Shown one piece after another: positions 4,009 through 63,378 of a stretch of DNA of 64,000 bases. Both the position numbers and the translations under genes were made by a program. The stretch is from Ignavibacteriota bacterium (GTDB lineage Bacteria; Bacteroidota; Ignavibacteria; UBA10030; UBA6906): contig CAWESL010000008.1 in NCBI GenBank assembly GCA_963811705.1, positions 454,673 to 518,672 on the forward strand, given 5' to 3'. The notes beneath the pieces are model-generated. The model worked only from the letters and a program-made list of their open reading frames with translations, did not search any database and was not told where the DNA came from. Within the stretch, counting starts at the first letter, position 1; every line of letters starts with the position of its first letter.

Positions 4009-5913
4009 ATGAAGACGCGCCTCTCCCTTTTGTTCATGGCTCTCCTGCTCGGCGCATATTGCCGGGCGGGTGAGCAAACCGTCCTTTCTCTTCGAGACTT
4101 CACACAGACCGAGCTGAAGGCAACCGGCATTACCGTCACCCAACCGACAACGGTCCATATCCGCGCACTCGGCGGCGGCGACGAAGAGGGCTGGGGATCG
4201 AAAACAAACTCGATGTTCGCTTATGGCTGGATTATCAATGCCGTGTCGAAAGATATCGTCTGGGAGATGACACTGCAAAATACCTCTTCGTCGTCGGACG
4301 ACAGGAAGTTTGACGGCACGATCAACCTTTCTCCCGGGAAGTACGAAGTGTACTTCACCGCGTACGCCTTCGTCGAGCACTCTCCCTTCTCTCAATTCCA
4401 GATCAATATCGACCACCGGGAATCGCCGCTGTTCGACGGACAGCAGGAATCGAAGCACGACTTCTTCGGTTGGCTGAAAGACCTTTGGTCAGGAGACGTG
4501 AAACGCGAATTCTACAAGCGCGCCCCCCGGTGGGGGATCGACCTGCTCGTCGATGAATCGGTTGCCTCGTCGATTACGCAATTTACTCCGCCGCTTGCGA
4601 TCCCCGATCTTGTGTCTCACGCCATCGGATTGGGCGACAACCAGTGTATCCGGATCGCGTTCGAACTGAAGGATCAGACAACCCTTCACCTTTACGCTCT
4701 CGGAGAACGAGGGAGAGAGAACGAACTGCCTGACGGTGGATGGATTGTCAACCTCGCCGACCGCAAGCGTGTCTGGGCGATGGATAACGCGGAAGTGACG
4801 TACGCGGGAGGCGCCTCGAAAAATATCGAGTTCCGCGGAGACGTCACACTCGATCGCGGTCAGTATCTGCTCTATTATATTACGGACAATAGCCATTCGA
4901 TGGACGACTGGAACCAGGCGCCGCCGTATGATCCCTTGGACTATGGCATCAGCATTGCCATTCGGGATGAATCCGAGCGCGCGAATTTCAGGCAGATCCC
5001 GTACAACGATTATGACAACGTGATTGTGAGCCTTATTCGGCCGGGTGATGATGAGCATCACACAGACGGCTTCTCCCTGAAACAGGATGCGGATCTCCGG
5101 GTCTACGCGATCGGCGAACGTTCGGGGGGCAGACGTTCCATGGCGGACTTCGGCCAAATCATCAACGCGCGGACCCGCGCAAAGGTGTGGACGATGGATG
5201 TCGAGAGGACGTCGTATGCAGGCGGGGCGCCGAAGAACAGATATATCGACGAGATCATCCATCTCCCCAAGGGGAACTACGAGGTCACCTATACGACCGA
5301 CGACTCGCATAGCTACGACGATTGGAATGATGATCCGCCGTTCGACCCGTCGCATTACGGCATCACGGTGATGGGTGTCGGCCCGAAATTCTCCCCCTCG
5401 ATCATCGGCAAGTATGTGGAGGAACGCGACAAGAGCATCATTGCCCAGATCATCCGGCCCGGCGACGACGAAGACCGCACCGTGCACTTCCGGCTCGACA
5501 AGCCGATGAGAATTCGAATCTATGCGATCGGCGAAGGGATGGGGAGGGAGATGTTCGACTACGGCTGGATCGAGAACGCCAAGACCGGCGATAATGTATG
5601 GGAGATGACATACCCGATGACGTTTTACGCCGGAGGGGCGCGCAAGAACCGGATGGTGAACACCACGCTGACGCTCGAGCGCGGCGAGTATTCCCTGCGA
5701 TGGAAGAGCGATGACTCGCACTCGTACAACGATTGGAATTCGGATCCACCGGACGATCAAGACTACTGGGGAATCACCGTTTTCCGCGATGAAGGAGAGG
5801 ACTTTGCACCGAGGCCCGCTGTGCCGCAGGAGCCCGACGAACCCTCGATGCCTTCGCCGCCGGCAACGCCGGGTCACAGGATTCCACCGCCACCGCAACC
5901 ACCGAGGAGATAG
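4009..5913 (+). CDS. Secreted hypothetical protein with four ~140-aa internal repeats and a Pro-rich tail
   Basis: RBS GAGGA, signal peptide; repeated YAxGE...VWxM...YAGGAxKN...DSHSxxDWNxxPP. Confidence 0.85.
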   Translation: MKTRLSLLFMALLLGAYCRAGEQTVLSLRDFTQTELKATGITVTQPTTVHIRALGGGDEEGWGSKTNSMFAYGWIINAVSKDIVWEMTLQNTSSSSDDRKFDGTINLSPGKYEVYFTAYAFVEHSPFSQFQINIDHRESPLFDGQQESKHDFFGWLKDLWSGDVKREFYKRAPRWGIDLLVDESVASSITQFTPPLAIPDLVSHAIGLGDNQCIRIAFELKDQTTLHLYALGERGRENELPDGGWIVNLADRKRVWAMDNAEVTYAGGASKNIEFRGDVTLDRGQYLLYYITDNSHSMDDWNQAPPYDPLDYGISIAIRDESERANFRQIPYNDYDNVIVSLIRPGDDEHHTDGFSLKQDADLRVYAIGERSGGRRSMADFGQIINARTRAKVWTMDVERTSYAGGAPKNRYIDEIIHLPKGNYEVTYTTDDSHSYDDWNDDPPFDPSHYGITVMGVGPKFSPSIIGKYVEERDKSIIAQIIRPGDDEDRTVHFRLDKPMRIRIYAIGEGMGREMFDYGWIENAKTGDNVWEMTYPMTFYAGGARKNRMVNTTLTLERGEYSLRWKSDDSHSYNDWNSDPPDDQDYWGITVFRDEGEDFAPRPAVPQEPDEPSMPSPPATPGHRIPPPPQPPRR

Positions 5914-34794: not shown

Positions 34795-35385
34795 CTATCG
34801 GGAAAAAAGGACGGAATCAAATGGGGCAGCTTCAGATCGTGCCGTCGCGAAATTGTCGCGCAGCGTAGATTGGTTCTTCTGATCCGTCGAGAGTTGTCGA
34901 TTCCGGGGCACGGTTTTAGCGAGAACGAAAGTGACAATGCCGACCACTGTCACGACAAGAATCCCGAATTGGCCGGTCCAGAGAGCAGGGTTGGATCCTT
35001 CTGTGTCGCGGGTGAAAGGACCTTCGATCACGGCACTCCAGGCGGAGTGGCCCAGCACCGCGCACCAGACGCTTCCTGTGTGTAGACGGAGTGTTCCCCA
35101 GAACACTGAAATCCCGACTGCCAGTCCCTGGAAGAGAAGGGCGGACAACGTGGGTAGGTCCTGCCGCGTATTGGCCTGAGAGGATGCGGGGCACATGCCA
35201 GAGTCACCAGATAACGCCGCTGGATGCCAGCGGGTGGAGAAGACCCGCGGTCGATGAGGCGTGTCCGCATGAAACCCCGTCAGCCGATCTCTTCACCGGC
35301 TGCAGTAGTGACTCCAACCACCGGAACCGAGCGTTAATGAAGCCCCGAGGGCCGCGAGAAAACGTCGATGAGATGAGCCAATCGT
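34795..35385 (-). pseudogene. Decayed CPBP (CAAX/Abi) intramembrane metalloprotease
   Basis: AAGEEIG*RGF (W to TGA), GVIW*LWHVP and TGSVW..VLGHSAW lie in different frames; 5' end lost at the REP pair. Confidence 0.75.
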
Positions 35386-35699
35386 GAAAAAGTTGGTTGC
35401 TTAGGCAACCATCTTAATGTTCGAAAACGGGCTCAAATAGGGCCGTCTTCATTGGAGAAAAAACATGGCAGCCTAAGCAACCGTTTTAATCTAACCTCTT
35501 CACCGGCTGCAGTAGTGACTCCAACCACGGAACCGAGCGTTAATGAAGCCGCGAGGGCCGCGAGAAAACGTCGATAAGATGAGCCAATCGTGAAAAAGTT
35601 GGTTGCTTAGGCAACCATCTTAATGTTCGAAAACGGGCTCAAATAGGGCCGTCTTCATTGGAGAAAAAACATGGCAGCCTAAGCAACCGTTTTAATCTA
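35289..35699. repeat. Tandem duplication of a ~205-bp unit, each containing a REP-like pair (cluster 4)
   Basis: 35289-35493 vs 35496-35699 differ by 2 substitutions and 1 indel; cores at 35395, 35467, 35601, 35673. Confidence 0.92.
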
Positions 35700-35709
35700 T
35701 CGCCTGTCG

Positions 35710-35829
35710 CTATTCATCCACCGGCGTCCACCGGTCCAGAAGCTTCTCCGGGATCCCGTCGATAAACCGCGATGGCTTCGAAAGGATCATCCCGCTTTCC
35801 CGGTCATACACGTTGATGGGGTAGGTAAT
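35710..35829 (-). repeat. Orphan duplicate of the last 40 codons of uvrD (direct repeat of 42774-42893)
   Basis: Encodes the identical peptide ITYPINVYDRESGMILSKPSRFIDGIPEKLLDRWTPVDE*; 8 differences, all at third codon positions. Confidence 0.93.
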
Positions 35830-35935
35830 GGCAGCCTACGCTGCCCTATTTTTCAGGCCAAGACAGAAACGTCATCCCTGTAATCTCTTACCCACGAGCC
35901 GGTTTCGGTGTGGCAAAACAAGGCAGCCTTGTTTT
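35830..35935. repeat. Two variant REP-like palindromes at the island edge
   Basis: GGCAGCCTACGCTGCC (35830-45) and AAAACAAGGC-A-GCCTTGTTTT (35915-35). Confidence 0.65.
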
Positions 35936-35939
35936 CCCT

Positions 35940-37769
35940 TCATCGCAGAAGAAGCATTGACTTCGTAACCGAATAGTTCCCGACGGTAAGACGGTAGAAA
36001 TAGACCCCGCTCGATAACGCCGCTCCGTCAAGAATGGCCTGGTAAGTGCCCGGCGATTGCCGCTCATCGACGAGCTCGGCAACGACTCGACCGAGCACAT
36101 CGTACACTTCCAATCGAACATCGCCCGCCCCTGGAATTGCATACCGAATCATGGTCGTCGGGTTGAATGGGTTTGGAAAGTTTTGTCCCAACATGTACTG
36201 CTTTGGTACTTCAATAAGCGCGCGAACGTCACTGGCCACGTATCCGGAAACGGTCACGTCGTCCACATACCATCCGAGATCTGCCCAGGGAGCATGAGAG
36301 GAAAAGGAGAAGCCGATTTGAGCCGACATTCCCGCGTAGGGGAGAAGATCAAGCGAGGGCGTGGTCCACGTCCCCCCGCCTGTTCCGGTATACGGGCCGC
36401 CAAGGTTCAACCACGGCCCTCCTTTAACCCTGATCTGAACGTACCCCGTATCTGAGGTAGAAAAACTATACCAGTGCCAGAACCGAAGGTGCGGATTGTG
36501 ATCGGAATCAGGAACCGCAAATTGCGGTGAGGTCAATCGCGATGCAGCATCGTCGATATAATTTCCGGCGAGTACTGTGGCCGCGCACTTGGTTCCGCTG
36601 TGTGCGATCCCCGGTCCACTCGTTGGCACACCCACCTGCCACGTCCCTGAGTCCGCGTACCAATCACCAATCCCGGTCTCCCAGTCCTCCGGGCTGCGCA
36701 GGATCTTGGGACCCGTCACTATGGCCACGTCATCGACATACCATCCGGCATCTGCCCATGGAGAATGAGAAGCGAAATAGAAAGCCAACTGGACAGTCAT
36801 TCCTGCATACGCCTTCAGATCAAGCGACGGCAATGTCCAAACGCCGCCACCCGTGCCGACATACGGTCCGCCAAGTGTCTGCCAGGGTCCTGTTCCGACT
36901 CTGATGAGAACGCGACCCGTATCGGATACTGAAAAACTAAACCAGTGTAAGAATCGGAGACGGGGGCTCTGACTGCTATCGGGCACCTCAAATGATGGTG
37001 AGATCAACCGCGTCGAAGCGTCGTCGATATAGTTTCCCGTCAGTACCGTCGCAGCACAATTGTTGCCTGAGTAGGCGGTCATGGGCCCGCTCGTTGGCAC
37101 ACCGACCTGCCATGTCCCGTAGTCGGCGTACCAATCGCCAATTCCCTCCTCCCAATTCTCAGGGTTATGAAATGTCTTTGGACCCGTGAGGACAGTAATG
37201 TCGTCGATATACCACCCCGCGTCTGTCCACGGCGCATGTGAGGTGAAATAGAACGCGAGTTGGACTGACAATCCCGCATACGCGCTCAAATCAAGCGAAG
37301 GCATCGTCCATACCCCACCGCCGGTGCCGACATACGGGCCCCCAATTTTCTGCCAGGCTCCCGTCCCGATTCTGATGAGAACATACCCAGAATCGGACGT
37401 TGAAAAACTGAACCAGTGCCAGAAACGGAGGCGCGGATTGCTCAGACTGTCAGGCACGATGATCGAAGGCGATATGAGCCGCGTGGAAGCGCCGTCGGAG
37501 TAATTCCCGGCGAGGACAGTTGCTGCGCACGCCAATCCGCCGTGTGCACTCCCTGGCCCGCTGGTGGGGGTTCCGACCTCCCAGGTCCCGAAATCCACGG
37601 ACCAGTTCTCAGACCAGTCACCTTCCCACCCTTCGTTCCAGACTGTATCGACACTCTGGGCATATGAGCCCTGTACCCAGATCAATAACATACAACACGC
37701 GGCAGCGGCGAAACGAAACGAATACGGCTGATGGGCGTGAACAGCGAATCTTCGAATGAATGTTTTCAT
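35940..37769 (-). CDS. T9SS-secreted protein with three tandem ~165-aa beta-sandwich (MAM/adhesin-like) repeats
   Basis: Repeated GTWxVGxPTSGP..A..G..CAATVL.GNY...LRFxHW...GWYxDD; QNFPNPFNP...SGVYFYRL CTD. Confidence 0.85.
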   Translation of the reverse strand: MKTFIRRFAVHAHQPYSFRFAAAACCMLLIWVQGSYAQSVDTVWNEGWEGDWSENWSVDFGTWEVGTPTSGPGSAHGGLACAATVLAGNYSDGASTRLISPSIIVPDSLSNPRLRFWHWFSFSTSDSGYVLIRIGTGAWQKIGGPYVGTGGGVWTMPSLDLSAYAGLSVQLAFYFTSHAPWTDAGWYIDDITVLTGPKTFHNPENWEEGIGDWYADYGTWQVGVPTSGPMTAYSGNNCAATVLTGNYIDDASTRLISPSFEVPDSSQSPRLRFLHWFSFSVSDTGRVLIRVGTGPWQTLGGPYVGTGGGVWTLPSLDLKAYAGMTVQLAFYFASHSPWADAGWYVDDVAIVTGPKILRSPEDWETGIGDWYADSGTWQVGVPTSGPGIAHSGTKCAATVLAGNYIDDAASRLTSPQFAVPDSDHNPHLRFWHWYSFSTSDTGYVQIRVKGGPWLNLGGPYTGTGGGTWTTPSLDLLPYAGMSAQIGFSFSSHAPWADLGWYVDDVTVSGYVASDVRALIEVPKQYMLGQNFPNPFNPTTMIRYAIPGAGDVRLEVYDVLGRVVAELVDERQSPGTYQAILDGAALSSGVYFYRLTVGNYSVTKSMLLLR

Positions 37770-42773: not shown

Positions 42774-43811
42774 TTACTCATCCACCGGCGTCCACCGGTC
42801 CAGAAGCTTCTCCGGGATCCCGTCGATAAACCGCGATGGCTTCGAAAGGATCATCCCACTCTCGCGGTCGTAAACGTTGATCGGGTAGGTAATATAAAGG
42901 TGCTCCTTCGCCCGGGTGCAAGCGACGTACATCAGGCGCCGTTCTTCTTCAATCGCGTCATCGTCCGTCGCCGCCCGCGCGGCCGGAAATCGTCCCTCCA
43001 ACGCGTACATCACGAAAACCGTGTTCCACTCAAGACCTTTCGCGCTGTGAATCGTCGAGAGGATCAGCTTCTCATCGTCGCTCCCGGGATCGCTGATGTC
43101 CGCGACGCTCTCCGTTGCCGGCTCAAGCGCAAGATCCGTCAGCAGCGTCGACAGTGAACGGTAGCGCTCAGTAATTTGCACGAACATCTCCAGGTCCTTC
43201 GCGCGCTTGTTGTGATCGTCGTACCGGAGTTTGAAGATCGGCTCATAGTACTGCAAGAGGCGCTGCACACGATCCGTCGGACTCAAATGTTCGGCGGAGG
43301 CGTCCTTCAGGGTCGCAAACAACGGGACGGTCTTCTCGGGGTAGGAATTGTAGCTCGGCCAAAAGGACGGGAGCCGGGTCGACGTCGCATCGCCGGCAGG
43401 TCCGACTCGTTTTGAAAGAATATCATCGAGAATCTTCTCGGCCGTGCGGGGGCCGACACCGTCCACCAGAAGCAGAATCCGGTTCCATGCGACAGCATCG
43501 CGGGGATTGTCCAGCACCCGGAGATAGGAGACGATATCCTTGATGTGGGCTGTTTCCATCAGCTTCAGGCCGCCGTACTTCACAAACGGGACGTTCGCCT
43601 TGGTGAGTTCCACCTCAAGATCGAAAGAAAGAAAGCCCGACCGGAACAGCACCGCAATCTCGCCCAAGGAGATCCCTTCTTCACGCAATTCGAGCACCTT
43701 CTGCACGATGAACCGCGATTGAATGTTCTCCGTCTGAGCGGCAATAATGGCCGGCAGCTCCCCTCCCAATTTGTGCGTGTACAGTTCCTTCGAAAATTTG
43801 TGCCGGGTCAT
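42774..43811 (-). CDS. uvrD: UvrD/PcrA-like SF1A helicase, C-terminal half
   Basis: AVLFR, STIHSAKGLEW, EEERRLMYVACTRAK; own ATG overlapping the HMT stop (ATGA) with AGGAAGG upstream. Confidence 0.88.
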   Translation of the reverse strand: MTRHKFSKELYTHKLGGELPAIIAAQTENIQSRFIVQKVLELREEGISLGEIAVLFRSGFLSFDLEVELTKANVPFVKYGGLKLMETAHIKDIVSYLRVLDNPRDAVAWNRILLLVDGVGPRTAEKILDDILSKRVGPAGDATSTRLPSFWPSYNSYPEKTVPLFATLKDASAEHLSPTDRVQRLLQYYEPIFKLRYDDHNKRAKDLEMFVQITERYRSLSTLLTDLALEPATESVADISDPGSDDEKLILSTIHSAKGLEWNTVFVMYALEGRFPAARAATDDDAIEEERRLMYVACTRAKEHLYITYPINVYDRESGMILSKPSRFIDGIPEKLLDRWTPVDE

Positions 43812-44653
43812 GCAATCGCCTTCCTGAGCATACGGATGTATTCCGGTGTCGTGCCGCAACATCCCCCGATGAACGTCGCGCCGAGTGCCGCCCAGCGCTG
43901 CGCGTACACGATGTAGTCTTCCGCCGCGATGTCGCACTCCATCGAGCCGTCGTGTTCATCGCCCGGCAGACCGACGTTCGCATAGACGCCGAAGGGAAGC
44001 GCTGACGCCGTGCGCAGGCGGTGGATGGCAATCCGCATGAAGCGCGGCGAAATACAATTGAGCGCGAGCGCCCACGGCCGGCAATCGTTGACGGCCTCCA
44101 CGGCGTCTTCGATCGGGTGCCCGTCGTAGAGATCTCCCGTTGTGGAGCAGAGAAAACTGACGACCGTCGGCAAACCCGTCGACGTTGCGGCCGTGCATGC
44201 CGCATGGGCTTCTCTCGCCGTCCCCATGGTTTCGCAGAGAAGCATGTCCACTCCGGCGTTCGCGAGACGCCGCGCATGGAGGGCGTGCTCCGCGGCGAGT
44301 TCCTCATCCGAGGGGACGAGGTCCGGACGATAGCAGTCTTCCAGCGGGGCGATCGATCCTGCGATTCTTACCGATCGATCAGGAAAGGCCGCGCGTGCCT
44401 GCTTCGCCAGGTCGACCGCCAGTGATGTAAGCTCTTCCGATCGGTCCGGGATTCCGGTAAGCCTGAATGTTCTCTGCGTTGTCCGGAACGTGTTGGTCGT
44501 TATGATGTCCGCACCTGCGGCAATGTACTCTTCATGAATGGTCCGCACCAGGCCCGGATCATCGATCAACGCATTCGCCGACCAGAGCGGAAGCCGCACA
44601 TTGGCTCCGCGCCGGGCAAGCTCAGTCCCCATGGCACCGTCTAGGAGCATCAT
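43808..44653 (-). CDS. Homocysteine S-methyltransferase family protein, lying between the two uvrD halves
   Basis: LLDGAMGTEL, GADIITTNTF, LNC, GGCCGTTPE zinc ligands. Confidence 0.92.
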   Translation of the reverse strand: MMLLDGAMGTELARRGANVRLPLWSANALIDDPGLVRTIHEEYIAAGADIITTNTFRTTQRTFRLTGIPDRSEELTSLAVDLAKQARAAFPDRSVRIAGSIAPLEDCYRPDLVPSDEELAAEHALHARRLANAGVDMLLCETMGTAREAHAACTAATSTGLPTVVSFLCSTTGDLYDGHPIEDAVEAVNDCRPWALALNCISPRFMRIAIHRLRTASALPFGVYANVGLPGDEHDGSMECDIAAEDYIVYAQRWAALGATFIGGCCGTTPEYIRMLRKAIA

Positions 44654-44654
44654 T

Positions 44655-44790
44655 GAGTACGCAGTAGGCAGTAAGGAGTATGCAGAAAACATACTGGATT
44701 CAGCCGGGAGTAGGAAGTATGACGTAGGAAGTAGGAAGAAAGCGGAGGCATTCGTCCCCCCCATCTTCCCATCTCCCCCATCCCCTCTCT
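44655..44790. repeat. Short 7/8-mer tandem arrays in the uvrD interruption spacer
   Basis: AGTACGC/AGTAGGC/AGTAAGG/AGTATGC; AGTAGGA/AGTATGA/CGTAGGA/AGTAGGA; CCCATCTY-type octamers abutting the uvrD-N stop. Confidence 0.75.
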
Positions 44791-45860
44791 CAGTCTCTCG
44801 CCCGCCGTATAATCTCGTTCGTTAAATCCAGAATCGGCTGTGTGCTCCGGTAATTCTCTTCGAGCTTGATGATTTTACAGTCGTCATACTGCTCGGGGAA
44901 CTCGAGGATGTTCCGCACGGTCGCGCCGCGGAAGCTGTAAATCGATTGCGCGTCGTCACCGACCACCATGACGTTGTGATGCCGGGAAGCGAGGAGCTGG
45001 ACGATTTCGGCCTGGATGAGGTTCGTGTCCTGGTATTCGTCCACCATGATGTATTTGTACCGGTCGCAAATCTTGGTCCGGACTTGGTCCACGTCGCGGA
45101 GCAGTTTCCGCAGATAGAGGAGAAGATCGTCGTAATCCATGAGATTGTGGCGCGATTTATATTCTTCGAATGCCCGTTGGAGCTGTCCGATCTCTTCAAG
45201 ATATCCTTCGTAGTGCGGGTATTCGTCCCGAAGCACCTCACGAAGCGGCCGGACGGTGTTGACTGCCTTGGAGAAGATATCGTAGAGCGTCTGCTTCCGC
45301 GGAAAGCGCTTCTCCTTCGTGTCGAACTTCAGCTTCGTCCGGAGCAGGTTCACCACATCTTCAGCGTCTCCCTGGTCAAGGATGCTGAACGATGACTCGA
45401 ACCCCACGAGGGGAGCGTACTGCCGCAGGACGAGGTTCGCGAAGGAATGGAAGGTCCCGCCGGCGACGTTTTCACAGCGGGCATCGAGCAGCATCGACGC
45501 CCGGCGCAGCATTTCTTGCGCCGCCCGGCGAGTGAACGTCAGGAGGAGGATAGCCTCCGGCTTGACACCCAGCTCGACGAGATAGGCGACGCGATAGACG
45601 ATCGTCCTGGTTTTCCCGGTGCCGGCGCCGGCGACGATGAGGTGCGGCCCGTTGACGGAAGACGCTGCCTCGTATTGCGCGGCATTCAGTTCGTTCCGGT
45701 AGTCGATCTTGAACTTCTGGGGAAGCGACGGTGCCGGTTCGAGCCCTGCGTCCGGGGTTTTCTTGAGGACGTATTTTTTCAACGTTGTTCGGTCTTGGTG
45801 CTCCAATTGGAAATTGGCAGTTGGGAATTCCCACGTGGCAATTGGGAACTGCCAATTCAT
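44790..45860 (-). CDS. uvrD: UvrD/PcrA-like SF1A helicase, N-terminal half
   Basis: Q motif LNAAQ, AGAGTGKT, TFHS, VDEYQD, VGDDAQSIYSFRG, EENYRS then stop; start is ATG 45860 (coupled to DUF72) or TTG 45782. Confidence 0.9.
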   Translation of the reverse strand: MNWQFPIATWEFPTANFQLEHQDRTTLKKYVLKKTPDAGLEPAPSLPQKFKIDYRNELNAAQYEAASSVNGPHLIVAGAGTGKTRTIVYRVAYLVELGVKPEAILLLTFTRRAAQEMLRRASMLLDARCENVAGGTFHSFANLVLRQYAPLVGFESSFSILDQGDAEDVVNLLRTKLKFDTKEKRFPRKQTLYDIFSKAVNTVRPLREVLRDEYPHYEGYLEEIGQLQRAFEEYKSRHNLMDYDDLLLYLRKLLRDVDQVRTKICDRYKYIMVDEYQDTNLIQAEIVQLLASRHHNVMVVGDDAQSIYSFRGATVRNILEFPEQYDDCKIIKLEENYRSTQPILDLTNEIIRRARD

Positions 45861-46861
45861 AATTTCTTGGCCGGGTACGCCTCCAGCGTGTCGAGGATCC
45901 CCTCGATCGTCTTCGGCGAATTCCCTTCGGCACGATTGTTCACGTACACATAGAGTGCGCGCTTTTCCGCGACGCACCGGTGCACCGCCTCGACAATTCC
46001 TTCCCGGAGTTCCGGGTTTTCTTCTTTGAGATGATCGTACGGCTTGAACATTTCCACCGCCTGTTCGTAGGTCCGTCCCGGTTTCAACAAGGCCCGGACG
46101 ACCGAAAAGTCCGTCGTCAACGTTCCCGAGATCCCGACCTGGCGGATGATCGGCGGCATGCGGGTCCAGTTGTTGAAGACATGCGAGACGCCGTGATCGG
46201 CGAGGAGCTTCAGGTAATCGCTCGTGAGAAAATCGCTGTTCCGTACCTCGACCGCATAGGAATACCCCCGGGGGAGCTTGGACAGAAAGTTCTCGAGGAG
46301 TGCCACGAAGCGTTCGTCGTCGATCCCGGAGTTCGGGTAGAATGTCGAGAACTCGAAAATGATCGCTCCCCGTTTTGTGCCGAGTGCGTCGAGCGGGCGG
46401 AGAAACGCGTCTTCGAAGAGGGCTGCGTTCAGAAAGTCCGGATTGTCCTTTCCGGCGAGAGCTCCGTAACGGGCGATGCCGGGATACCGGAACACGGTAA
46501 TTCTGTCGGTCACCTTCAGCGCGAGGCGAAAACCATCGGGGGTCTGATCATTGATGCGCTCCATCGTCTCGCGGTCGGGAAAATCGTAAAGCGCGAAATC
46601 CGCGCACACCGTCGGGAACAGCGCGGCATACTCCGCGAGGCATTCCTGCTCGAAGCTGCGCTGTGAGGCATATCGCCGGTTATACACCATCCCTTTCCAC
46701 CCCGGATATTTCCAGGACGACGATCCGAAGAGGATCCCGCGTGAGGCCCATGTCTCGAGCCGACTCTTGTTCCGTTCGACATACTCCGACGTCGGCGGCG
46801 GGGCTTCCGGAAAGAGCGGAAGGGTCGCATCCGCTGTTGGTGTCCGCTTCTTTTTTGGCAT
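45857..46861 (-). CDS. DUF72 family TIM-barrel protein
   Basis: GSSSWKYPGWKG.VY, YA..F.TV..D, YAVEVRN, YVYVNNRAEG. Confidence 0.88.
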   Translation of the reverse strand: MPKKKRTPTADATLPLFPEAPPPTSEYVERNKSRLETWASRGILFGSSSWKYPGWKGMVYNRRYASQRSFEQECLAEYAALFPTVCADFALYDFPDRETMERINDQTPDGFRLALKVTDRITVFRYPGIARYGALAGKDNPDFLNAALFEDAFLRPLDALGTKRGAIIFEFSTFYPNSGIDDERFVALLENFLSKLPRGYSYAVEVRNSDFLTSDYLKLLADHGVSHVFNNWTRMPPIIRQVGISGTLTTDFSVVRALLKPGRTYEQAVEMFKPYDHLKEENPELREGIVEAVHRCVAEKRALYVYVNNRAEGNSPKTIEGILDTLEAYPAKKL

Positions 46862-46952
46862 GATGCAATATACGAACGCAGGGAGAGGAAAGAAAAAGTC
46901 CACAGACGCGTGGACTTTTTCATGACCGACCGGACAACATCGCGTGAGAGGC

Positions 46953-47756
46953 TCAGCCACCCATGCCGGCCTGCATGCCGGTGATCAGGGCGAACGCCAC
47001 CCAGAGGATCCAGAGCGCGAACACAAGCACGAGGACCTTGGTCAGGTCCTTCATGAAGAGGCGTGAGAGGCCGATGCTCACCACGCCGAGGTCCCAGAAC
47101 GTAAACAGATTGATCTTTGCCAGGAGGAGGTGAATTTTATTGTCGACCGAGAAGCTGTCGAGGACAAAGAGAGCAAGGTTTGGTCCGGCATGGAGTTTAT
47201 CGAACCCGATGGCCATGATCGTTGTGACGATGGACTCGAGGCACCCGATGAAGAAGGTCAGCCCGACCACCTCCACCACTTTCATATACGGTGCGTTGAC
47301 TTTCATCACTGTTTTGCCGAGCAGCCAGTAGACCAGGCAGACAAAGAACAATCCGATGGGGACGATGATCACGAGTGATCCGGCGGTGGTGATCGTCATC
47401 CACGGCGAACTGGGGTCGGTGAATTTTTCCATCTGTTCGCGGGCCTGGTCGGCCTGTTCGGCAGTCATCTTTCCGTTCTGGATCTGTTCCTGGAGTCGTT
47501 TTTCCGACTGCTGGGAGATCTGATCTTTGAGCTGACTGGCGAGCGACGGGTTGCGCAACGTGAGTTGTGACATGCCGAACGCAATGAGGATGAAGATGAT
47601 CAACGGCACGACCCAATTGGAGGGAGTCGATGCGGTGTTGCGGACGTTGTCGAACAGCTCACTGGGCGCCGCGAAGATATTCGTCAGTCGTTCCGTGAAC
47701 GACATTGGTGCGACGGGCGGTTCACCGGTTGCTTGCGGGGTAGTGGTGTCTTCCAT
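46953..47756 (-). CDS. Yip1 family membrane protein
   Basis: IFAAPSELF, TM / soluble helix / multi-TM layout, INLFTFW; AGGAG RBS. Confidence 0.8.
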   Translation of the reverse strand: MEDTTTPQATGEPPVAPMSFTERLTNIFAAPSELFDNVRNTASTPSNWVVPLIIFILIAFGMSQLTLRNPSLASQLKDQISQQSEKRLQEQIQNGKMTAEQADQAREQMEKFTDPSSPWMTITTAGSLVIIVPIGLFFVCLVYWLLGKTVMKVNAPYMKVVEVVGLTFFIGCLESIVTTIMAIGFDKLHAGPNLALFVLDSFSVDNKIHLLLAKINLFTFWDLGVVSIGLSRLFMKDLTKVLVLVFALWILWVAFALITGMQAGMGG

Positions 47757-47827: not shown

Positions 47828-47880
47828 ACGACATTTTTGTCGTTGCGTGACTTGACAGAGCGACAAATTTGTCGTATTCT
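47828..47880 (+). promoter_or_regulatory. dinB-operon promoter with two CGACA-N4-TGTCG palindromic operators
   Basis: ACGACA-TTTT-TGTCGT 47828-43; TTGACA 47852-57; CGACAAATTTGTCG 47861-74; TATTCT 47875-80 (17-bp spacing). Confidence 0.75.
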
Positions 47881-47900
47881 TTTGTCGGAACTCACCCTGG

Positions 47901-47972
47901 TCCCCCCATCTCCCTATCTCCCCATCTCCCCTTCGCGCGAAGGGGGGAAGGGGAGAACGGGGGAGGGGGAGA
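47901..47972. repeat. Pyrimidine/purine octamer hairpin element, copy 1
   Basis: (CCCCATCT)n-CCCCTTCGCGCGAAGGGG-(GGGAGA..)n; similar element at 51243-51330. Confidence 0.7.
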
Positions 47973-47979
47973 AAGAGCT

Positions 47980-49164
47980 ATGCGCCTCTATCTCCATCTT
48001 GACCTCGACAGCTTTTTCGCCTCTGTCGAAACCGCGCTCCGCCCCGAACTGCGTGGGATCCCGGTGTGTGTGGGAGGGCAGCGGGGAGGGCGCGGGATTG
48101 TAACCTGTCCGAATTACGCAGCGCGCGCGTACGGTGTCCGGACTGCCATGTCGGTGCGCGCGGCGGAGCAGCTGCTTCCGTCGACGGCCGTCTTTCTGCG
48201 GGGGAACCATCGTCTCTACGGCGATTACTCCCGGCGCGTCATGGCAATCCTGGAGTCGTTTGGACCCGGCGTGCGGCAGAAGAGCATCGATGAGGCGCTG
48301 ATGGAAATACAGGGATCCCTGCATTTCTGGGGGGACGATCCGGTTCGCATGGCGCGGGCAATCAAGGACCGCATTCAGGAGGAGACGGAGCTGACCATCT
48401 CCGCGGGGATTGCGCCCAATCCGCTCTGCGCGAAGATCGCGGCGGGTCTGCGCAAGCCGGACGGCCTCGTGCTGATACGGCACGGTCGGGTGCGCGAGAC
48501 GCTTGCGCCGCTGCCGGTGGACGTCGTGCCGGGGATCGGCAAAAAGACCGCGCCGCGTCTCCGCATGCGGGGGATCTTCACGGTCGGCGACCTGATCGCC
48601 CGGGCGCCGGAGCGTGACGGCTGGCTCGGGTCGCTGGTGCAAGCGTTGCTGGACGAGAGCGACGACCGCGAACACGGCGACCATCAGGCCGAAGAACATT
48701 CCATCTCGCGCGACAGGACGTTCGGTCAGGACACCGCCGACCGGGAACAGATCGAAACGACGCTCTTCATGTTGACCGAACGATGCTGCAAGACGCTTCG
48801 CGCCGAAGGCCTCGCGGCGTCGACGGTAACGCTGAAAGTGCGGTATGCGGATTTCACCACCGTGCAGAAACAGGAGACCCTCCCGTCGGCCGTGATGAAC
48901 GAAGAACAGATCTTCGCGGCGGTGCGGTCGCTTCTCGACGATCTCCTGCCGCCGTGGCGGTTCGTCCGTCTCGTCGGCGTCAAGGTCTCGAACCTCTCGC
49001 CGCTGGAAGGGCAACAGCTCGTCCTCGACGGCGGAGAGACGGAGCGGCTGTATCAGCTCCACCAGGAAGTGGACGCGCTGCAAAAAAAGTTCGGGGAGAA
49101 AAGCGTGCGGTGGGGGAAGGGAACAATGGACGATGGAAAATGGAAGATGGAGAATCGAGAATGA
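47980..49164 (+). CDS. dinB: DNA polymerase IV (Y family)
   Basis: HLDLDSFFASVE, YAAR..GVR.AM, SIDEA, KPDG, PGIG, RLVGV; catalytic acidic residues intact. Confidence 0.95.
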   Translation: MRLYLHLDLDSFFASVETALRPELRGIPVCVGGQRGGRGIVTCPNYAARAYGVRTAMSVRAAEQLLPSTAVFLRGNHRLYGDYSRRVMAILESFGPGVRQKSIDEALMEIQGSLHFWGDDPVRMARAIKDRIQEETELTISAGIAPNPLCAKIAAGLRKPDGLVLIRHGRVRETLAPLPVDVVPGIGKKTAPRLRMRGIFTVGDLIARAPERDGWLGSLVQALLDESDDREHGDHQAEEHSISRDRTFGQDTADREQIETTLFMLTERCCKTLRAEGLAASTVTLKVRYADFTTVQKQETLPSAVMNEEQIFAAVRSLLDDLLPPWRFVRLVGVKVSNLSPLEGQQLVLDGGETERLYQLHQEVDALQKKFGEKSVRWGKGTMDDGKWKMENRE

Positions 49165-51000: not shown

Positions 51001-51333
51001 ATGGGACGCACCGTACCGACATTTACCATGGTCTTGCAGCAGGAGATCGACAGCTGGGGGAAATTCCGCCGAGCGCTGCGCAAGGAAGATCAGGACGCGA
51101 TGGACGAGCTCTTCCGCTCCGCGCAACTGCAGCTTGCGGGAAGCGCGTACGCCGCCCGGCCGATCCCCTTCGAGAGCATCGCGATGGCGATGCTGGTGGC
51201 ACTGCAGCGAAGGGTGCGGGAGCTGGAACGCAGTGCGAAGTCACCCCATGTCCCCCCATCCCCCCATCTCCCCCTCTCCCCTTCGCGCGATGGGGAGAGA
51301 GGGAGAACGGGAGAGGGGGGGAATGGGGGATGA
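51001..51333 (+). CDS. Small helical PolB2-associated protein (arCOG07300-like)
   Basis: MGRTVPTF...W.KFRRALRKEDQ...DELF signature; AGGAG RBS; C-tail encoded by a repeat element. Confidence 0.75.
   Translation: MGRTVPTFTMVLQQEIDSWGKFRRALRKEDQDAMDELFRSAQLQLAGSAYAARPIPFESIAMAMLVALQRRVRELERSAKSPHVPPSPHLPLSPSRDGERGRTGEGGNGG
51243..51330. repeat. Pyrimidine/purine octamer hairpin element, copy 2
   Basis: CCCCATGT/CCCCATCC/CCCCATCT..CCCCTTCGCGCGATGGGG..GGGAGAAC. Confidence 0.7.
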
Positions 51334-63139: not shown

Positions 63140-63294
63140 GTCTGGCATAAGTGCCAGACATAAGTGTCAGACATAGGTGCCAGACACAAATGCCAGACAC
63201 ATATGCCAGACACAAGTGCCAGACACAAGTGCCAGACACAAGTGCCAGACACAAATGCCAGACACAAGTGCCAGACACAAATGCCAGACACAAG
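63140..63294. repeat. 13-bp tandem repeat TGCCAGACACAAG x11 with one inverted half-unit
   Basis: Units 63152-63294; preceded by GTCTGGCA (63140-47). Confidence 0.95.
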
Positions 63295-63378
63295 TGTCCT
63301 GACCCGGGTCTGTCCCCCCTTCCCCTTGACAATTCCTCCTTGACAATCGACAATCGATAATTGATCTTTAATGGATGG

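Follow-up and report, generated by a model that had tools for sequence, protein, structure and literature searches.

UvrD, PcrA and Rep are the textbook single-chain motors of helicase superfamily 1A (SF1A); SF1 helicases generally have their nucleotide site at the meeting of domains 1A and 2A, and in the UvrD/Rep-type enzymes the 2B domain is a known autoinhibitory and regulatory element. Here we describe a UvrD-family helicase of an Ignavibacteriota bacterium that is encoded by two genes instead of one. These genes, termed here the N-half and the C-half, lie on the minus strand of a stretch of 64,000 nucleotides (assembly GCA_963811705.1, contig CAWESL010000008.1, positions 454,673 to 518,672; hereafter the window), and a complete gene of the homocysteine S-methyltransferase (HMT) family stands between them. 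We consider it probable, at roughly 85%, that the arrangement stems from an ancient fission of an SF1A paralogue that produced an obligate two-chain helicase, the gap between the two genes being colonized later by unrelated genes. In molecular terms, an ancestral single gene of ~660 codons would have been cut in a surface loop, four residues past the helix that follows motif IV. The ATP site would draw residues from both pieces, so that the two polypeptides would have to reassemble, with 2A built from two chains. Expression of the C-half would be tied to whichever gene lies upstream, through overlapping or abutting stop and start codons, and the gap would have taken up different genes by lineage, HMT being the passenger in the family of the window genome. 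We infer that the two chains physically assemble and act as a helicase.

Nucleic-acid motors composed of several polypeptides are well known, and include the split reverse gyrase of Nanoarchaeum equitans, Cas3'/Cas3'' and the heterodimeric AddAB, AdnAB and RecBCD enzymes. Motor function is spread over several chains in these systems, as here, but they are split between whole domains or pair two complete helicase-like subunits, whereas the cut described here passes through RecA-like domain 2A of a single motor. Crystals of cut PcrA (2PJR, chains A and B; 1QHH, chains A, B and D, labelled 'PcrA (subunit)') illustrate that fragments of an SF1A helicase can stay assembled; their nicks, which we take to be proteolytic, lie at other positions, however, and arose after folding, not genetically. 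Split inteins such as split DnaE likewise yield one protein from two genes, but here no intein sequence lies at the break and the product most likely stays two chains. The closest likeness is to PcrA, UvrD and Rep themselves (1PJR/3PJR, 2IS1, 4C2U, 1UAA), in that the halves together match the whole motor core and carry the same set of motifs, the N-half aligning to residues 11-301 of the PcrA structure (E 2.5e-55) and the C-half to residues 309-647 (E 2.9e-33); these enzymes differ in being one chain rather than two, in possessing a C-terminal domain and in defining equivalog profiles against which the split helicase scores far below the cut-offs. Intact orthologues of ~660 residues, annotated as 'ATP-dependent helicase' in metagenome-assembled genomes from outside the order and in one family within it (f4), are 45-84% identical over both parts and share the length and the junction, and differ from the split helicase in occupying one open reading frame (ORF). 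Full-text searches of non-subscription journals, supplements aside, turned up no account of a UvrD-family helicase that is naturally split.

The window sequence and its ORF translations reveal three co-directional ORFs on the minus strand. The N-half ORF (44790..45860) encodes 356 residues from an ATG at 45860 and ends in ...NEIIRRARD (...EENYRSTQPILDLTNEIIRRARD) before a stop at 44790-44792; its residues 58-325 match PF00580 over profile positions 1-270 of 271 (E 7e-75, 252.7 bits, cut-off 23). The true start is probably a TTG at 45782 giving 330 residues ('MKKYVLKK'), because relatives begin at 'MKKY...' and the 120 best database homologues, which span 92-96% of the 356-residue ORF, are 327-364 residues long. 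The HMT gene follows (43808..44653), matching PF02574 over all 283 of 283 positions (E 1e-69, 235.8 bits, cut-off 22) and the MmuM-type equivalog NF007020 at 191.5 bits, under its cut-off of 215; the gene thus appears to be a member of the homocysteine S-methyltransferase family, to which the profile match assigns no substrate. Its longest ORF (43808..44764) starts at an in-frame ATG at 44764, but the shorter form starting at 44653 is likely the real one, since the stretch of a close genus relative (G002) that corresponds to the 44653-44764 extension contains stop codons and since matches in relatives begin at query residue 37-39. The C-half (42774..43811) encodes 345 residues, opens with MTRHKFSKELYT, and matches PF13361 over residues 11-309 (E 8e-48, 164 bits, cut-off 25.6; profile positions 33-347 of 350), while the first 23 positions of that profile find a weak match, at 19.3 bits and below the cut-off, on the N-half tail. 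The start of the C-half (ATG, 43809-43811) overlaps the HMT stop (43808-43810) in an ATGA, and a putative Shine-Dalgarno-like AGGAAGG (43819-43825, minus strand) lies 7 nt upstream, within the HMT coding sequence. Between the N-half stop and the likely HMT start is a spacer of 136 nt (44654..44789) made of 7-8-nt micro-repeats, located by Tandem Repeats Finder at 44656-44685, 44709-44738 and 44758-44782; its length presupposes that HMT starts at its second methionine ('MLLDG', 44653). The same spacer in genus relatives contains different repeats, and a weak terminator-like hairpin within it (44744-44761) does not rise above chance. An initial annotation of this DNA, made from the sequence alone, had described two intact helicase halves around a complete HMT gene, the overlap with its ribosome-binding-site-like motif and the repeat-filled spacer, and these features hold on closer reading, the spacer on the condition just given.

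The break is exact. Against the PcrA profile TIGR01073 the N-half covers positions 3-296 and the C-half 299-638; against PcrA 1PJR the N-half ends at about residue 305 and the C-half begins at about 306; and against the intact orthologues the cut falls exactly between the E and the K of ...RAKE|KYTK..., the C-half bearing four extra residues (M-T-R-H) before the ancestral K. In all three alignments the break costs no residue, as the initial annotation had suggested, and its division of the helicase motifs is likewise borne out by direct reading: GAGTGKT, DEYQD, VVGDDAQSIYSFRGA and EENYRS are located in the N-half, and AVLFRS, STIHSAKGLEW and YVACTRAK in the C-half, motifs to which we presume the names I, II, III, IV, IVa, V and VI apply. 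An AlphaFold2 model of the intact orthologue (22-row alignment; mean predicted local distance difference test score, pLDDT, 85.5; predicted template modelling score, pTM, 0.83) assigns residues 300-304 to the motif IV strand and 312-323 to a helix; a non-regular stretch follows over 324-343, up to the next strand at 344-348, and the cut, at 327|328, falls within this stretch. Under what we take to be the PcrA domain scheme, the N-half comprises domains 1A and 1B together with the first strand and helix of RecA-like 2A, and the C-half presumably the rest of 2A, including motifs V and VI, together with 2B; as the N-half holds just one strand and one helix of 2A, the C-half must complete that domain. 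No intein residues or fragments were found at the break, Pfam gave no extra domains, and the N-half stops at the residue aligned with the ancestral E. Among relatives the N-half ends 0-10 residues from the ancestral cut point, with a tail of variable length, and the C-half head is of two types, M-x-R-H-K-Y and M-Y-x-K; the varying heads and tails suggest that the termini have drifted since the split. Separately, split and intact forms of the helicase both carry at the C-terminus a conserved acidic tail, ...L-L-E-x-W-V-[IV]-D-E-E (window 42777-42800, ...LLDRWTPVDE), which might be a docking motif.

The initial annotation had named the gene uvrD, an assignment that does not stand. Against the PcrA, UvrD and Rep equivalogs (TIGR01073, TIGR01075, NF008743, TIGR01074) the halves score 275 and 165 bits, below the cut-offs, and an intact orthologue (P0004, 662 residues, from G027) reaches 478 bits on the PcrA profile against a cut-off of 911, with lower UvrD and Rep scores. 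The P0004 match ends at PcrA profile position 637 of 725 and that of the C-half at 638, which indicates that the C-terminal domain (profile positions ~640-725) is absent from the split helicase and its intact orthologue alike. The window genome carries elsewhere, on another contig (C12), a separate PcrA-like gene of 741 residues that matches profile positions 1-724 at 840 bits, as well as an AddA-like gene. Because of the sub-cut-off scores, the missing C-terminal domain and the full-length PcrA-like gene elsewhere, the split gene is best classified, on its sequence, as a UvrD-family (SF1A) paralogue and not as the housekeeping PcrA/UvrD. Genes flanking the intact homologues, which in Ignavibacteriaceae are FloA and a small ORF upstream and elsewhere vary, gave no clue to function.

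Relatives had been proposed as the place to look for the same split, and it is widespread among them. In a first sample of 41 genomes (40 relatives and the window genome), full-length N-half orthologues (64-94% identity) occur in 27 and C-half orthologues, at E<=1e-40, in 29. Nearly all N-half matches there are open frames of ~330-400 codons, and at all but two of the junctions read the N-half runs to a stop at ...RARE/RARD or a few residues away, and the C-half restarts from a start codon of its own, as M-x-R-H-K-[YF]... or M-Y-x-K.... G027 and G035 of family f4, the two exceptions, have single frames of 669 codons that read ...RAKE-KYTKVLYT... without interruption. The same pair recurred when the sample was enlarged to the whole order (277 genomes including that of the window; halves searched at E<=1e-100): with the intact protein as query, an uninterrupted match over residues 1-662 was found in just these 2 of the 277 genomes. 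The N-half is present in 185 of the 277 and the C-half in 175, and 163 carry both as separate ORFs; among the 210 genomes with completeness of 90% or more and contamination of 5% or less, 145 have the N-half and 145 the C-half.

Beyond the order, one genome for each of 185,579 species yielded 553 confirmed loci, of which the best 80 were read at the junction. Ten of these are split at this site, all among the closest relatives; one has lost its N side to a contig end; and the remaining 69 are continuous, reading A-x-E-K-Y-x-K, although two of these nominally intact loci (L074, L079) have a stop somewhere within the matched parts. The continuous loci are labelled Ignavibacteriaceae, Melioribacteraceae, Nitrospira, Binatia, deltaproteobacteria and others, and their number among the best 80 argues that the intact form is ancestral. 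The fission arose within, or at the base of, this order. An alignment of intact proteins with separate halves was set aside for misaligning the first ~60 C-half residues. Maximum-likelihood trees were built for the two parts separately; 30 of the more distant intact rows were dropped, leaving 70 of 100 rows in the C-part tree and 69 of 99 in the N-part tree. In both trees all split genes, together with f4, fall in one clade, with Shimodaira-Hasegawa-like approximate likelihood ratio test (SH-aLRT) support of 98 for the N-part and 95 for the C-part.

Both halves are under strong purifying selection. Ratios of nonsynonymous to synonymous substitution rates (dN/dS) were estimated by the Nei-Gojobori method for the 15 pairs of six genomes. 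For the window genome (G000) against its closest genus relatives, G001 and G002, the ratios are 0.030 and 0.023 for the N-half, 0.031 and 0.031 for the C-half and 0.074 and 0.116 for HMT; within the genus the pairwise values range over 0.023-0.059, 0.024-0.079 and 0.07-0.12, respectively, and over all 15 pairs they reach 0.12, 0.13 and 0.19. These ratios are rough, as for most pairs dS, at 0.6-3.1 overall and 0.6-1.4 between the closest genomes, approaches or exceeds saturation (one HMT pair was not calculable); dN itself is clearly very low in both halves. The statement of the initial annotation that neither half is decayed agrees with the open frames and with ratios of ~0.02-0.03 against the two closest relatives, and relaxed selection on both halves, proposed there as one outcome that would refute its claim, is not seen.

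Structure prediction places the two chains together. A complex of the N-half and C-half, predicted with alignments of both, scored 0.82, the best of three controls scoring 0.02; of 80 solved complexes, 58 attain the mark used for such scores, as do 2 of 110 mismatched pairs. Contact agreement across the complex runs was at least 92% and partner pLDDT at least 79. In the complex model the N-half contributes its tail (chain residues 306-330), P-loop (50-55) and motif III (277-283) to the interface, and the C-half its head (3-20), motif V (254-261) and motif VI (284-305). The model shows that both chains are compatible with the known fold, a matter of likeness and not of binding.

Several points, the near-saturation of dS among them, weigh against an obligate two-chain helicase derived from a single old fission. 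The complex score may stem from the solved single-chain PcrA/UvrD structures. Co-occurrence is imperfect at E<=1e-100, with 22 genomes holding the N-half only and 12 the C-half only. Ten of these 34 discordant genomes were checked, and five do contain the other half, fragmented or incomplete: it is spread across contigs in G074, G088, G128 and G267 and is a partial match beside the C-half in G135. In four others (G094, G205, G107, G043) the other half was not found, the C-half of G205 beginning 954 nt from a contig start. In the tenth, G237, which is 100% complete in 30 contigs, the C-half lies in three frames with one TGA (C25:1247-2255). The C-half of G006 likewise lies in two frames (L028, 6279-7311); these broken C-halves reflect either real decay or indel errors of assembly. 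Finally, both maximum-likelihood trees place the intact f4 pair within the split clade, so that a single fission would need either a re-fusion or a wrong placement of f4, and otherwise more than one fission must have occurred. Approximately unbiased (AU) tests did not reject a single fission with f4 outside the clade (p 0.45 and 0.28), and one fission is enough for the data; if the tree placement is right, a later, precise re-fusion of the split helicase in f4 is possible.

The naturally split, translationally coupled two-subunit helicase that the initial annotation had offered as one of two readings gains from the order-wide split, the selection on both genes, their co-occurrence and the start/stop overlaps, while assembly and activity, as put at the outset, go beyond these observations. 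With regard to coupling, the C-half has its own start codon in all 34 loci in which it was read (ATG in 29, GTG or TTG in 5), and this start overlaps an upstream stop in 16 of the 34, a count made by script except at L025, where the script chose a spurious frame and the locus was read by eye; a further 8 loci have a gap of 0-24 nt. The genes upstream of the overlapping starts are HMT, a lipoprotein gene, a small ORF or the N-half itself, and overlaps with such differing genes suggest that the coupling arrangement was re-created around each. These observations leave some room for the idea that the fission was not neutral, that is, that the helicase is controlled by its assembly, with the 2B-bearing C-half as a dissociable subunit and activity set by subunit supply. 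Supply would then be tied to different upstream genes by lineage and be fully uncoupled in two genomes, G014 and G023; we regard this refinement as unlikely, if worth keeping in view.

Those two genomes also bear on an alternative that we hold to be improbable, namely that each half is retained for a function of its own and the two do not come together as one helicase; the N-half might then be, for instance, a module that binds DNA or a partial ATPase, and the C-half a factor acting by itself. Neither genome has the halves linked: in G023 the C-half lies 13 kb from the N-half and HMT, and in G014 the three genes lie apart from one another, the two halves on different contigs, each half in either genome keeping its own stop and ATG. 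The N-half found alone in G094 and the frameshifted C-half of G237 would also fit separate functions. Against this stand the joint presence of the halves in 163 genomes and their joint absence from families f6 (0/4) and f9 (0/3) and genera g20 (0/12) and g15 (0/4), and the similar, very low dN at which both evolve. Separate functions would further leave motifs I-III on one chain and V-VI on the other, although the SF1 nucleotide site lies between 1A and 2A, and would leave the N-half with an orphan strand and helix of domain 2A; the complex model, moreover, joins exactly the tail, P-loop and motif III of the one chain with the head and motifs V and VI of the other.

Duplicated stretches of the locus were seen in two assemblies. 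In G039 (L052, C17) a partial second copy of the junction lies at ~4600-5000, ~5 kb upstream of the real gene pair, and consists of the N-half tail from motif III, a stop and the first ~36 codons of the C-half ('MYYKELYTTKPGG...') before running into unrelated sequence; it is probably a remnant of a duplication. In G147 the whole pair of N-half and C-half occurs twice on contig C31 with identical scores and in inverted orientation (35561-37761, plus strand; 87566-89766, minus strand), which could stem from a large inverted duplication or from an error of assembly.

The content of the gap differs by lineage. HMT is interposed in the window's family, f1, only, with the N-half, HMT and C-half in that order on one contig in 15 loci (the window and 14 relatives), and two further genomes (G012, G024) are compatible with this order across contig breaks; the interposed copies are 48-84% identical to that of the window. 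In G202, an f1 genome of the same genus as the HMT-bearing G016, the halves are 15 nt apart without HMT, while G017 and G022 have an HMT orthologue without the split helicase. In G025 (f2) and G036 (f5) a lipoprotein-like gene of ~265 residues fills the gap; the two copies are homologous (33% identity, E 2e-43), and that of G025 matches Exo_endo_phos (E 8e-7). In G026 and G034 (f3) two small ORFs without a Pfam match are found there, and in G033, G039, G031, G118, G154, G226, L060, L065, L066 and L068, as in G202, the halves are only 0-174 nt apart. Since families without any insert, or with unrelated ones, show the identical break, HMT entered an existing gap as one of at least three kinds of passenger and did not split the gene. 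The second reading of the initial annotation, a very recent gene-in-gene insertion, must therefore be abandoned. Taken alone, the window fits a recent HMT insertion that left two fresh, undecayed remnants of a uvrD-like gene, with its clean break and a complete gene between the halves without mobile-element genes; yet beyond the identical break elsewhere, the divergence of HMT among the 15 f1 loci, the dS of 0.6-1.4 between the closest genomes at dN/dS of ~0.03 for the halves, and the HMT-free G202 of the same family make a recent insertion highly improbable. A 640-codon open frame in G016 that resembled an in-frame fusion of N-half and HMT was rejected, the long frame running upstream and the N-half ending in a stop.

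That the ribosome still yields one chain, by reading through the stop codon or bypassing the gap, or that splicing of protein or RNA joins the halves, we find scarcely credible. Support for one chain lies in eight further genomes of the 277 in which the intact query spans both halves in one frame with a single in-frame stop between them; stop and restart were confirmed in G202, G226, G118, G154 and G039, whereas in G072, with one in-frame TGA, a motif search did not locate the junction. At most loci, however, the halves are in different frames or have whole genes between them, the intervening stop varies among genomes (TGA, TAA or TAG), the break has no intein-like residues, every C-half in the 34 loci has its own start codon, and in two genomes the halves are unlinked. 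Least credible of all is an assembly artefact or decaying pseudogene: the source genome is a metagenome-assembled draft of 22 contigs, but the arrangement recurs in ~160 independent assemblies, both frames are open and under purifying selection, and the HMT/C-half junction (43811) is bridged by contigs from three public soil or sediment runs (X1 record 4, X2 record 10, X4 record 25), these being short, of low depth, from one study and possibly from the window's own source. None of the contigs of those runs bridges the spacer between the N-half and HMT, and a look for RNA runs over this stretch returned none.

The interest of an ancient fission to a two-chain helicase lies in a cut made inside RecA-like 2A and in the strong selection that has maintained both genes in most of an order of soil bacteria. 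Should the chains reassemble, the site would constitute a natural, evolution-tested split point for this class of motor, of use in split-protein engineering, and a means to study the coupling of 2A and the regulatory 2B domain to 1A. It would also offer a case study of gene fate after fission, in which the gap was filled by at least three unrelated kinds of genes, start/stop overlaps were re-created each time and the halves drifted apart in two genomes. For annotation there is a warning, in that thousands of database entries of ~330 residues named 'DNA helicase II/PcrA' are half-proteins.

The surroundings of the locus are conserved in family f1, where the order of a 293-residue membrane protein, a DUF72 gene, the N-half, HMT and the C-half was found by tblastn in the loci of 15 relatives, both flanking genes being present in 14 of the 15. 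In the window the DUF72 gene (45857..46960, minus strand; PF01904, E 1e-31) lies directly upstream of the N-half, with a stop that overlaps the N-half ATG (45860). Just past the membrane-protein gene, at a point that the longest DUF72 ORF includes in its 5' end, is a strong terminator-like hairpin (13 pairs, then a T-run; 46892-46921, minus strand); the actual DUF72 start is probably further downstream than that of this ORF, and the transcription unit may begin near the hairpin. A promoter and terminator scan did not rise above chance, giving 9 terminator-like sites against 5.3 +/- 2.8 expected, with a sigma-70 consensus that may not suit this phylum. Divergently upstream of the membrane protein-DUF72-helicase cluster is a gene for a DinB-like Y-family DNA polymerase (IMS, IMS_HHH and IMS_C domains; 47869-49164, plus strand), which occurs at the same place in 7 of the f1 loci examined and may hint at a DNA-damage context for the helicase.

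Short-period tandem micro-repeats (7-16 nt) make up many of the intergenic spacers of the window, at 44656-44782, 45800-45860, 47904-47973, 49120-49155, 51240-51327 and 63149-63296, the last consisting of a 13-nt unit repeated 11.4 times. The repeat at 44704-44747 also occurs in contigs of the soil runs, with unrelated flanks. A longer repeat, comprising two copies of a 206-nt unit at 98% identity, lies at 35289-35699.

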